Below are positions 8,071-11,791 of a stretch of DNA of 12,474 nucleotides, piece after piece (positions within the stretch are counted from its first letter, which is position 1; every line of letters starts with the position of its first letter). The translations under genes and the position numbers were made by a program. This stretch comes from Candidatus Methanomethylicia archaeon (GTDB lineage: Archaea; Thermoproteota; Methanomethylicia; CALHIW01), in contig JAWBQF010000050.1 of NCBI GenBank assembly GCA_038845975.1, positions 1 to 12,474 on the forward strand. Direction: 5' to 3'. Below the pieces are notes generated by a model. It worked only from the letters and a program-made list of their open reading frames with translations. It was not told where the DNA came from and did no database searches.

Positions 8071-8182
8071 TGGGCCCGAGGGGATTTGAACCCCTGACCA
8101 CCCGGTATCTCAAAAATTTATGAGCCGGGCGCTCTAGTCAATATCTGACCTGGCTGAGCATCCCACATATTGGTACGGGCCC
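8071..8182 (-). tRNA. tRNA-Ile2 (CAU) with three introns (9/10, 22/23, 37/38)
   Basis: Removing 8160-8173, 8134-8144 and 8107-8118 gives GGGCCCGTAGCTCAGCCAGGTCAGAGCGCCCGGCTCATAACCGGGTGGTCAGGGGTTCAAATCCCCTCGGGCCCA. The GGG/CCC acceptor start is typical of archaeal Ile rather than Met tRNAs. Confidence 0.9.
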
Positions 8183-8213
8183 TCCCAGGCCCATTATTTT
8201 ACTACTTAACTAG

Positions 8214-8221
8214 CTTATAAA
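8214..8221 (-). promoter_or_regulatory. TATA box of tRNA-Ile2
   Basis: TTTATAAG on the minus strand predicts a transcription start near 8192, about 10 nt upstream of tRNA position 1. Confidence 0.5.
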
Positions 8222-8464
8222 TTTATATAGTTGGTTTAAATAACACTACCATACATTCGAATTAGAAAGCTTAGTAAATTGGAATTTAAGTAAACTTAAA
8301 CCTCATCTTTTTACATTATTAAAAATAGTTACTTATAGTGTTGTTCTTATTTGTTGCCGTATTGTCTATATAATCTAAAGTTTTCTATTTGTCTAGTGAA
8401 GATATTTTCTTACATGTCCTTATGGAATGGAAAACTATACAGTGTCTCTATGAAGTAGAATTGG

Positions 8465-8792
8465 GGCAGCGGAAGACACCGGCACTCGAAATCTCCATAA
8501 CCACCGTTTGGTAGTCAGCAGTCTCACATCCGCTACCCATGAACGACATGGCCCAGACTTAGGGCCGCTCTATTCCTAGCCTAACCCGTTTCGTCTGTTC
8601 AAGCTTAATCCCTTCCTCCGAAGGGACTAGCTTTGCCATGTCTCCATGGGGCGTGTGATCATAGATGCTTAACTACCTCAGCATGGTCATGGAGAAGCCT
8701 CATGCCGGCTTCTCAGCCCGCCATATAGACCGTTTGCGGTCGGACATATTCCTCAGGGGAGGCCTAGTCCCCCGCCTAAGTCTTCCGCTGCC
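8465..8792 (-). ncRNA. ffs: Archaeal signal recognition particle (7S SRP) RNA
   Basis: 13-bp terminal helix GGCAGCGGAAGAC/GTCTTCCGCTGCC; helix 6 TCCCTTC-GGAG-GAAGGGA; helix 8 GGGTTAGGCTA-GGAA-TAGAGCGGCCC (8562-8587); complementary Alu loops TAGGCC and GGTCTA. It forms a 328-nt GC-rich island. Confidence 0.92.
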
Positions 8793-11689: not shown

Positions 11690-11791
11690 GCTCCGGTAGT
11701 ATACATAAGCCTTATAGGCTTTGGCAGAAAGTCCGGTCAAGTATAGGGGCCTCTCGAGCCCCAGACCCGGGTTCAAATCCCGGCCGGAGCA
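11690..11791 (+). tRNA. tRNA-Glu (CTC) with a 27-nt insertion in the D arm (13/14 or 14/15)
   Basis: Removing 11704-11730 gives GCTCCGGTAGTATAGTCCGGTCAAGTATAGGGGCCTCTCGAGCCCCAGACCCGGGTTCAAATCCCGGCCGGAGCA, a typical archaeal tRNA-Glu. Confidence 0.88.

Follow-up and report, generated by a model that had tools for sequence, protein, structure and literature searches.

A leader copying the acceptor 5' strand of a three-intron archaeal tRNA(CAU) gene: a candidate cis-acting decoy for splicing at position 9/10

In bacterial and eukaryotic precursor tRNAs, the leader pairs with the 3' trailer, extends the acceptor stem and affects the access of RNase P. Split tRNAs, as in Nanoarchaeum, Caldivirga, Staphylothermus and Aeropyrum, have a GC-rich leader that is involved in the RNA-RNA pairing by which the splice motif becomes possible (PMC3218864, PMC4033280). 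For tRNAs with several introns, prior removal of one intron before the motif of the next one forms has already been stated for tRNAscan-SE 2.0 (PMC8450103), and tRNA ends are trimmed before intron removal in Methanopyrus kandleri (PMC3695527). As far as the available text of these sources goes, the pairing of split-tRNA leaders, the scanning of flanks for end-proximal introns and the ordered removal of neighbouring introns are already in print. Here we describe a tRNA(CAU) gene that is interrupted at position 9/10 and is directly preceded by a 10-nt leader. It is located in a window of 12,474 nucleotides, which is the whole stretch of DNA analysed (contig JAWBQF010000050.1 of a Candidatus Methanomethylicia archaeon). 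On the basis of the sequence pattern, which is conserved and associated with 5'-proximal introns, and of thermodynamic prediction, we lean towards the proposal that this leader serves in cis as a stand-in, or decoy, for the 5' strand of the acceptor stem.

The tRNA(CAU) gene is located at 8182-8072 on the minus strand of the window (Table 1), in an archaeal assembly of 2.77 Mb with 34% G+C. It is detected neither by ARAGORN nor by Rfam at the gathering threshold. According to manual parsing of the sequence, it contains three introns at 9/10, 22/23 and 37/38, and their manual removal gives a canonical 74-nt cloverleaf plus A73 with the anticodon CAT. A single promoter-like box precedes the exons, all of which follow each other in order on the same strand and within 111 nt. 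The body with G1-C72/A73 that carries the CAU anticodon is common to the GGGCCCG-type tRNAs of this genome. The initiator tRNA is encoded by a separate gene (C34), and the present gene, which may be that of Ile2 or elongator Met, is called tRNA(CAU) here. A tRNA start at 8192, which makes the leader copy the real acceptor strand, was considered and rejected, because it would require a 2-nt micro-exon or an A8 to accommodate positions 8-9 (UA) and the D stem.

The introns of tRNA(CAU) are archaeal bulge-helix-bulge (hBHBh') introns by the helix definition given in the available text of a bioRxiv preprint (10.64898/2026.10.13.758758). A central helix is present in all three, CCCG/UGGG with one G-U pair at 9/10, GGUC/GACU at 22/23 and CUCA/UGAG at 37/38, together with 3-nt bulges, in which the cut sites (arrows) are UA↓C and AU↓G, AG↓A and AG↓A, and UA↓A and AU↓A, respectively. 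In the 9/10 motif, C4-G7 of exon 1 form the central helix and G1-G3 form the exon helix with C11-C13, and the intron helix is CA/UG. The 37/38 motif is flanked by the anticodon stem. The 22/23 motif is a relaxed one by manual parsing, which has no in-register flanking (outer) helix until the D stem forms.

As described in the initial annotation, the leader is the sole G+C-rich stretch in an A/T-rich flank; it is preceded by about 40 A/T-rich bases. It has two potential partners within the transcript. GGGCCTG forms seven of seven pairs, including one U-G pair, with the 3' acceptor strand CGGGCCC (8078-8072; -15.9 kcal/mol). GGCCTGG (8191-8185) likewise forms seven of seven pairs, including one G-U pair, with CCAGGTC of the D loop (8153-8147), and the leader pairs with the D region at -13.5 kcal/mol, as calculated with RNAduplex. 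Neither value is equalled by any of 500 composition-preserving shuffles of the leader. The pairing with the D loop, on which the initial annotation was built, is found in exactly the register proposed there. It prolongs the exon helix of the 9/10 motif (G1-G3/C11-C13) beyond a GA/AG 2x2 internal loop, and it covers GGTC, which is the exon strand of the central helix (GGTC/GACT) of the 22/23 motif. The similarity of GGGCCTG to the acceptor 5' strand had been mentioned only as a side remark, and this similarity proved to be the recurring feature.

The tRNA genes of this genome (G000), 37 in our compilation, were compared on this point. Acceptor-copy leaders were defined as those having, within about 8 nt upstream of +1, a 7-mer that forms at least six of seven pairs with the gene's own 3' acceptor strand, in genes with the first intron at or before 10/11, so that the splice motif needs bases of the acceptor 5' strand. 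tRNA(CAU) has both features, with seven of seven pairs and a 3-nt spacer on the one hand, and a 9/10 intron with a central helix from positions 4-7 on the other. The first intron is located at or before 10/11 in seven of the 37 genes, namely CAU and Lys-UUU (9/10), Gln-UUG and Gln-CUG (10/11), Pro-GGG (7/8), and Pro-UGG and Trp (3/4). All seven have a G+C-rich leader, and in six of them the first seven bases of the leader are so close to the gene's own 5' acceptor strand that all seven pair with the 3' strand. None of the other 30 genes reaches 7/7, and one reaches 6/7. The association between an early intron and a leader copy gives a Fisher p of 3e-6, in which paralogues are not independent. 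The copy follows the acceptor, since the leaders contain GGGCCTG or GGGCTCG for GGGCCCG, AGCCCGG for AGCCCGG, and GGGGCTG or GGGGCCG for GGGGCCG. The arrangement is thus seen with three unrelated acceptor sequences and at four intron positions. Introns in the D loop, anticodon arm, variable region and T loop are not accompanied by an acceptor-like leader in this genome.

The leader is conserved in relatives that carry the corresponding introns. In the sister genome G001, it is kept in all five orthologues found (Lys, Gln-UUG, Pro-UGG, Pro-GGG and Trp). The CAU orthologue was not found in G001, the assembly of which is 62% complete, and a search of metagenomes for variants of the CAU gene gave no match with a specific pattern and only an identical copy (L113) with a looser one. 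Intron-less orthologues across the class (62 genomes; 8 CAU, 28 Gln and 10 Pro-GGG genes) pair at 5/7 at most, so that none of the 46 reaches 6/7. A pattern scan with one genome per prokaryotic species, in which GGGCCCGTA is followed after a gap of 8-30 nt by GGGATGCTCAG, gave 26 loci. Ten of these are archaeal 9/10-intron tRNAs, six from Bathyarchaeia and one each from Thermoproteota, Methanomethylicia, Micrarchaeota and a metagenome-assembled genome labelled 'Methanobacteriota', and an acceptor-like leader adjoins +1 in all ten. When three Lys variants from metagenomes are included, the copy pairs with the 3' strand at 7/7 in nine and at 6/7 or better in 12 of 13 archaeal genes, always within 6 nt of +1. 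By comparison, 18 bacterial chance matches to the same patterns, used as a control, give 7/7 in no case and 6/7 in three. Five Lys(UUU) orthologues share the same 7-mer, GGGCTCG, while the spacer after it varies from 2 to 6 nt and is GA, GGAGT, GAGTG, GGAGCG or GGGGAG. RNAalifold finds no compensatory pair in these five, because the paired columns are invariant.

In the reverse direction, 401 genomes of the phylum were scanned for a leader-plus-acceptor pattern. The scan returned 45 matches, a number similar to that of the reversed-pattern control (about 35-40 by our own tally). Forty matches were inspected, of which 28 are not tRNAs (two of them upstream of 16S rRNA) and 12 are located at tRNA 5' ends. 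A 5'-proximal intron is present in 11 of these 12, including four genes of one Thermoproteota genome (G382; L141, L158, L159 and L160). In each of the four, a perfect copy of GGGCCCG is followed by a spacer of 5-6 nt, GGGCCCGT and an intron of about 22 nt, and the spacers CCCGGA, CCTAGA and CCTGG partially match the D-arm sequence. At the two loci near 16S rRNA (L149 in G350 and L150 in G116), a GGGCCTG...GGGCCCGT pair precedes the 5' end of this rRNA (TCCGGTTGATCCTGCCGG) by about 70 nt and presumably belongs to the rRNA processing stem.

Folding was then used to compare the two partners of the leader. The duplex between the leader and the 3' strand is better than those of shuffled leaders (p <= 0.022) in nine of twelve 9/10-intron genes. 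The leader is paired with the 3' strand in the minimum free energy (MFE) folds of all seven precursors as well as in the RNAalifold consensus for Lys. At 37 and 70 °C, the pair probabilities predicted for the CAU precursor are 0.96 and 0.93 between the leader and the 3' strand, and 0.05 and 0.03 between the leader and the D loop, respectively. The fold with the leader on the 3' strand is the free MFE fold at 37, 70 and 85 °C (-56.0, -22.4 and -9.94 kcal/mol, in this order of temperature). The energies are -53.0, -19.6 and -5.83 kcal/mol when the 9/10 motif is enforced in addition, -51.7, -20.6 and -7.99 kcal/mol for the fold with the native acceptor stem, and -47.9, -18.65 and -7.39 kcal/mol for the D-loop fold. 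These predicted energetics favour the 3' strand at moderate temperature, with the D loop still possible at growth temperature.

The effect of the leader on the first splice motif was predicted by folding nine precursors (CAU, two Lys, three other 9/10-intron genes, L020 and two Gln) with and without it. In all nine, the central helix of the 5' intron has a probability of 0.001 or lower without the leader, as the native acceptor stem then outcompetes it. When the leader is present, this probability ranges from 0.05 to 0.998 at 37 °C; six of the nine reach 0.4 or more, and seven exceed the mean of shuffled leaders. The splice motifs of the CAU precursor can all three coexist in the predicted fold in which the leader is paired with the 3' strand. 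For this reason, the mutual exclusion of splicing at 9/10 and 22/23, which the initial annotation derived from the covering of GGTC, is not required. Its broader idea that the leader guides folding in cis is retained in part: the leader is non-random, probably belongs to the pre-tRNA and is tied to the 9/10 intron, but its conserved predicted partner is the 3' acceptor strand, not the D loop.

The proposed mechanism is as follows. The 9/10 motif would need the true 5' strand out of the acceptor stem, with C4-G7 pairing with the intron's 3' end and G1-G3 with C11-C13, and its competitor would be the 7-bp GC acceptor stem, which would normally win. The leader GGGCCUG would occupy the 3' strand and leave the true 5' strand free for the splice motif. 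This pairing would keep a helix resembling that of the acceptor and T arm, may stack on the short exon helix, and would leave nothing for RNase P to cut at the true +1, so that RNase P would be delayed. A broad-specificity endonuclease would cut the precursor and the ligase would join the exons. After splicing, the perfectly matched true strand, tethered via U8-A9 and the D arm, would displace the wobble-containing copy, and the leader would be removed by RNase P in the last step. Use of the leader implies that splicing precedes RNase P, and we therefore infer, in agreement with the earlier suggestion, that the 9/10 intron is removed before the leader is cut off. The genome encodes two EndA homologues, which fit a broad-specificity heterotetramer, and an Rpp30 homologue (C38:1584-2201). 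The D stem would be blocked until the 9/10 intron is spliced, because C11-C13 are engaged in the 9/10 motif. Since the D stem is the only possible outer helix for the 22/23 motif, an order of 9/10 and then 22/23 is plausible without a helix between the leader and the D loop.

With a confidence somewhat short of even, this proposal is extended to archaeal introns in or next to the acceptor 5' strand in general. These introns may depend on a pseudo-acceptor strand in the leader, by which the 3' strand is sequestered, the motif is formed, splicing occurs first and RNase P acts last. Such a cis element might be widespread across Thermoproteota (Methanomethylicia and Bathyarchaeia) and beyond, and the 10 nt of the CAU leader might toggle between the 3' strand and the D loop.

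The introns at 3/4 suggest a further role of the leader. At this position, the leader must supply bases of the central helix, because exon 1 is only GGG; it contributes three of the four bases of this helix and pairs further on with D-arm positions 10-17. The Trp leader forms eight of eight Watson-Crick pairs with D-arm positions 10-17 in the sister genome and seven of eight in this genome. Three differences are present between the two genomes, all of which improve the pairing in the sister genome. In Pro-UGG, the leader sequence GCUGAA pairs with UUCAGC. Pairing between the leader and the D arm is therefore well supported in the 3/4-intron tRNAs of this genus, and the leaders of these tRNAs combine two roles: they form or lengthen the exon helix when exon 1 is not long enough, and they also act as a copy of the acceptor strand. 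The same leader bases in the CAU gene can take either role, and it is possible that the D-loop pairing and the ordering of introns are extras for the CAU gene, the former as an added or alternative way to lengthen the exon helix.

A start of transcription at the leader is weakly predicted from the distance to a TATA-like box. In line with the earlier assignment, this distance, 29 nt from the start of the box to the first base of the leader, is close to the median distance from TATA to +1 of 30 nt in 25 control tRNA genes. This support is weak, because the A/T-rich flank contains alternative boxes, and boxes of like score also fit the mature 5' end in several genes. Among transcript data, contigs of run X1 match only conserved 3' parts of tRNAs with 93-95% likeness, and runs X2 and X3 contain no reads.

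The initial annotation assigned the leader to the D loop as its main mechanism. In a model of this kind, GGCCUGG/CCAGGUC would lengthen the exon helix of the 9/10 motif and hide GGUC, so that the order would be 9/10, 22/23 and RNase P. This is now unlikely to be the main role of the leader. Its seven pairs in exact register, their energy relative to shuffled leaders and the precedent of Trp and Pro(UGG) all speak for it, as does the D loop CCAGGUC itself, which is unlike those of the eight class orthologues. However, the same register gives only one to four of seven pairs in 11 other 9/10-intron tRNAs, the duplex between the leader and the D region is above shuffles (p < 0.05) in only four of twelve, and the spacer of the Lys orthologues varies in length. 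At 37 °C, the D-loop fold of the CAU precursor, with its low pair probability, is less stable than the decoy folds by 5-8 kcal/mol, and neither the sister genome nor the metagenome patterns gave an orthologue with a variant sequence. The complementarity is also partly automatic when an acceptor-like GGGCCNG meets a D loop with CC..GG. A non-functional origin, in which the copy is a tolerated by-product of the gain or spread of 5' introns by partial duplication or gene conversion of a leader-exon 1-intron cassette among tRNAs sharing a 5' end, has a still smaller chance of being correct. It would account for the common exon 1, the 14-nt intron ending in GGGAT and the similar leader of the CAU and Lys genes and for the perfect tandem copies in Bathyarchaeia and Gln, and a spread of introns among tRNA genes has been proposed for Thermoproteales in the available text of PMC4090602. 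It does not fit an invariant 7-mer next to a variable spacer in five Lys orthologues, or the same arrangement with unrelated acceptors and different intron positions in several phyla. The splice helix is also predicted to be unable to form without the leader, and a copy upstream of exon 1 fits no geometry of target-site duplication. It is highly improbable that the leader is only a G-rich initiation region or a generic determinant for RNase P or protein binding that does not pair with the tRNA body. Archaeal tRNA leaders are often short and G-rich, as in M. kandleri (PMC3695527, available text), and a GC-rich leader is also found at the Ala tRNAs of this genome, which lack a 5' intron, but the leader sequence varies with the acceptor sequence and the duplex energies are matched by none of the 500 shuffles.

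Several observations weigh against the decoy proposal. The copies in L023, L035 and L045 are imperfect, and their duplexes with the 3' strand are not above shuffles. The Trp copy reaches only 5/7, and its leader matches the D arm instead. An intron-less tRNA-Ile(GAU) gene (L153, G081:C1:1316859-1316878) is preceded by GGGCCTG with a 5-nt spacer. The native leader is no better than shuffled ones at 37 °C for the Lys gene of this genome and for L020, and at 85 °C, when the 9/10 motif is enforced, the D-loop fold (-7.39 kcal/mol) is better than the decoy fold (-5.83 kcal/mol), so that it is the best fold retaining this motif at that temperature. Differences between the copy and the true strand are wobble-compatible in only about six of 13 cases (own tally; rough binomial p = 0.04). 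Tracking of the acceptor alone cannot separate pairing with the 3' strand from copying of the 5' strand for another reason, since any copy of this strand would follow the acceptor. Many of the examples are related to each other, and the census of 37 tRNA genes is probably incomplete. No match to RF00373 or RF02357 was found for RNase P RNA in the genome, and RF02357 gave no match in control genomes either; this RNA may be divergent, interrupted or unassembled. In run X4, the signal recognition particle (SRP) RNA is covered about 1000-fold and the tRNA(CAU) gene about 0-2-fold, and neither a start site nor an intermediate is seen.

Table 1. Features of the tRNA(CAU) gene and its upstream flank in the window
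Feature	Position	Strand	Remarks
TATA-like box TTTATAAG	8214..8221	-	29 nt upstream of the first leader base; prediction only
Leader GGGCCTGGGA, 10 nt	8192-8183	-	directly before exon 1 GGGCCCGTA
Leader 7-mer GGGCCTG	8186..8192	-	near-copy of acceptor 5' strand GGGCCCG (C6 to U); 7/7 with 3' strand
Spacer GGA between acceptor copy and tRNA +1	8183..8185	-	spacers of 0-7 nt in related cases
Exon 1 (GGGCCCGTA), tRNA positions 1-9	8174..8182	-	manual parse
Intron 1 CCAATATGTGGGAT, 14 nt, position 9/10	8160..8173	-	TGGG/CCCG pairing; bulges TA↓C and AT↓G
Exon 2 (GCTCAGCCAGGTCAG), positions 10-22	8145..8159	-	holds D-loop CCAGGTC at 8153-8147
Intron 2, 11 nt, position 22/23	8134..8144	-	central helix GGTC/GACT; AGA bulges
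Exon 3, positions 23-37, anticodon CAT	8119..8133	-	sequence parse
Intron 3, 12 nt, canonical position 37/38	8107..8118	-	central helix CTCA/TGAG
Exon 4, positions 38-72	8072..8106	-	3' acceptor strand CGGGCCC 8078-8072; discriminator A73 at 8071

Other RNA genes were noted in the window. The SRP RNA gene at 8463-8792 on the minus strand (Rfam match 8470-8787) is strongly expressed in run X4 with a depth of about 800-1150. Three reads join 8792 to 8475 (back 318) and two join 8733 to 8479 with 11 extra letters, which suggests a circular or permuted form, and C is found instead of T at position 8643 in about half of the reads. A class-II tRNA, probably Leu(CAG), is located at 7953-7843 on the minus strand. 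It is missed by ARAGORN and Rfam and is parsed by eye only; apparently, it has a 13-nt intron at about 33/34, an intron of about 12 nt inside the T loop and an encoded CCA after A73. The tRNA-Glu gene at 11690-11791 on the plus strand has its true start at 11690 (GCTCCGG) and a 28-nt intron in the D loop. Another acceptor-like 7-mer lies in this intron, GCTTTGG, which forms seven of seven pairs with the 3' strand and was read as the 5' end at 11718 by ARAGORN and Rfam. The acceptor copy of this gene thus sits in the intron, not in the leader. For the gene at 12012-11926 on the minus strand, called tRNA-Ile (aat) by ARAGORN, a better parse is tRNA-Lys(CUU) interrupted at 30/31 by a 13-nt intron, and 30/31 is the split position of Lys(CUU) in Nanoarchaeum and Staphylothermus according to the available text of PMC3218864. 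Elsewhere in the genome, two tRNA-Ala genes (G000 C21:17290-17383 and C34:313-406) have a common G+C-rich leader GGTGCTGAGTGAT and a sole intron in the variable region. TGCTGA of this leader is complementary to TCAGTA in the intron, and this may be another pairing between a leader and an intron.

If the decoy proposal is correct, it would explain how introns persist in the most stable helix of the tRNA despite the competition between acceptor stem and splice motif for the same bases, and it would represent a compact case of RNA strand exchange that times processing steps. It also provides a sequence rule for gene finders, which may seek a copy of the acceptor strand just upstream of a tRNA; this rule would be useful because ARAGORN and Rfam both missed tRNA(CAU). 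An acceptor-like leader is not described in the available text of the literature on archaeal tRNA introns and split tRNAs, and a prior description elsewhere is possible. The gene resembles those with multiple or non-canonical introns of the Thermoproteales type (SPLITS/tRNAscan-SE 2.0) in that one tRNA contains three introns, with a full hBHBh' at 9/10 and an hBH at 37/38. However, the published accounts, as far as their available text goes, treat the flanks only as sequence to be scanned for the motif, whereas the leader copies the acceptor strand here. The similarity to split tRNAs suggested by the initial annotation is a loose one. A GC-rich leader whose RNA-RNA pairing enables the splice motif is common to both, but the present case involves a single gene and a single transcript, the leader is not joined to the trailer of another transcript, and no motif is present at the boundary between the leader and exon 1. 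The leader would also be removed by RNase P, not by the splicing endonuclease. The enzymes are the same as those for processing in M. kandleri, namely RNase P, the endonuclease and the ligase, but the order would be different, since the leader would be needed, or at 3/4 introns would form part of the central helix, so that splicing would come first. This would be a gene-specific reversal of the order of ends first and introns later reported for M. kandleri. The difference from the leader-trailer pairing of bacteria and eukaryotes is that the leader would replace the 5' strand inside the stem.

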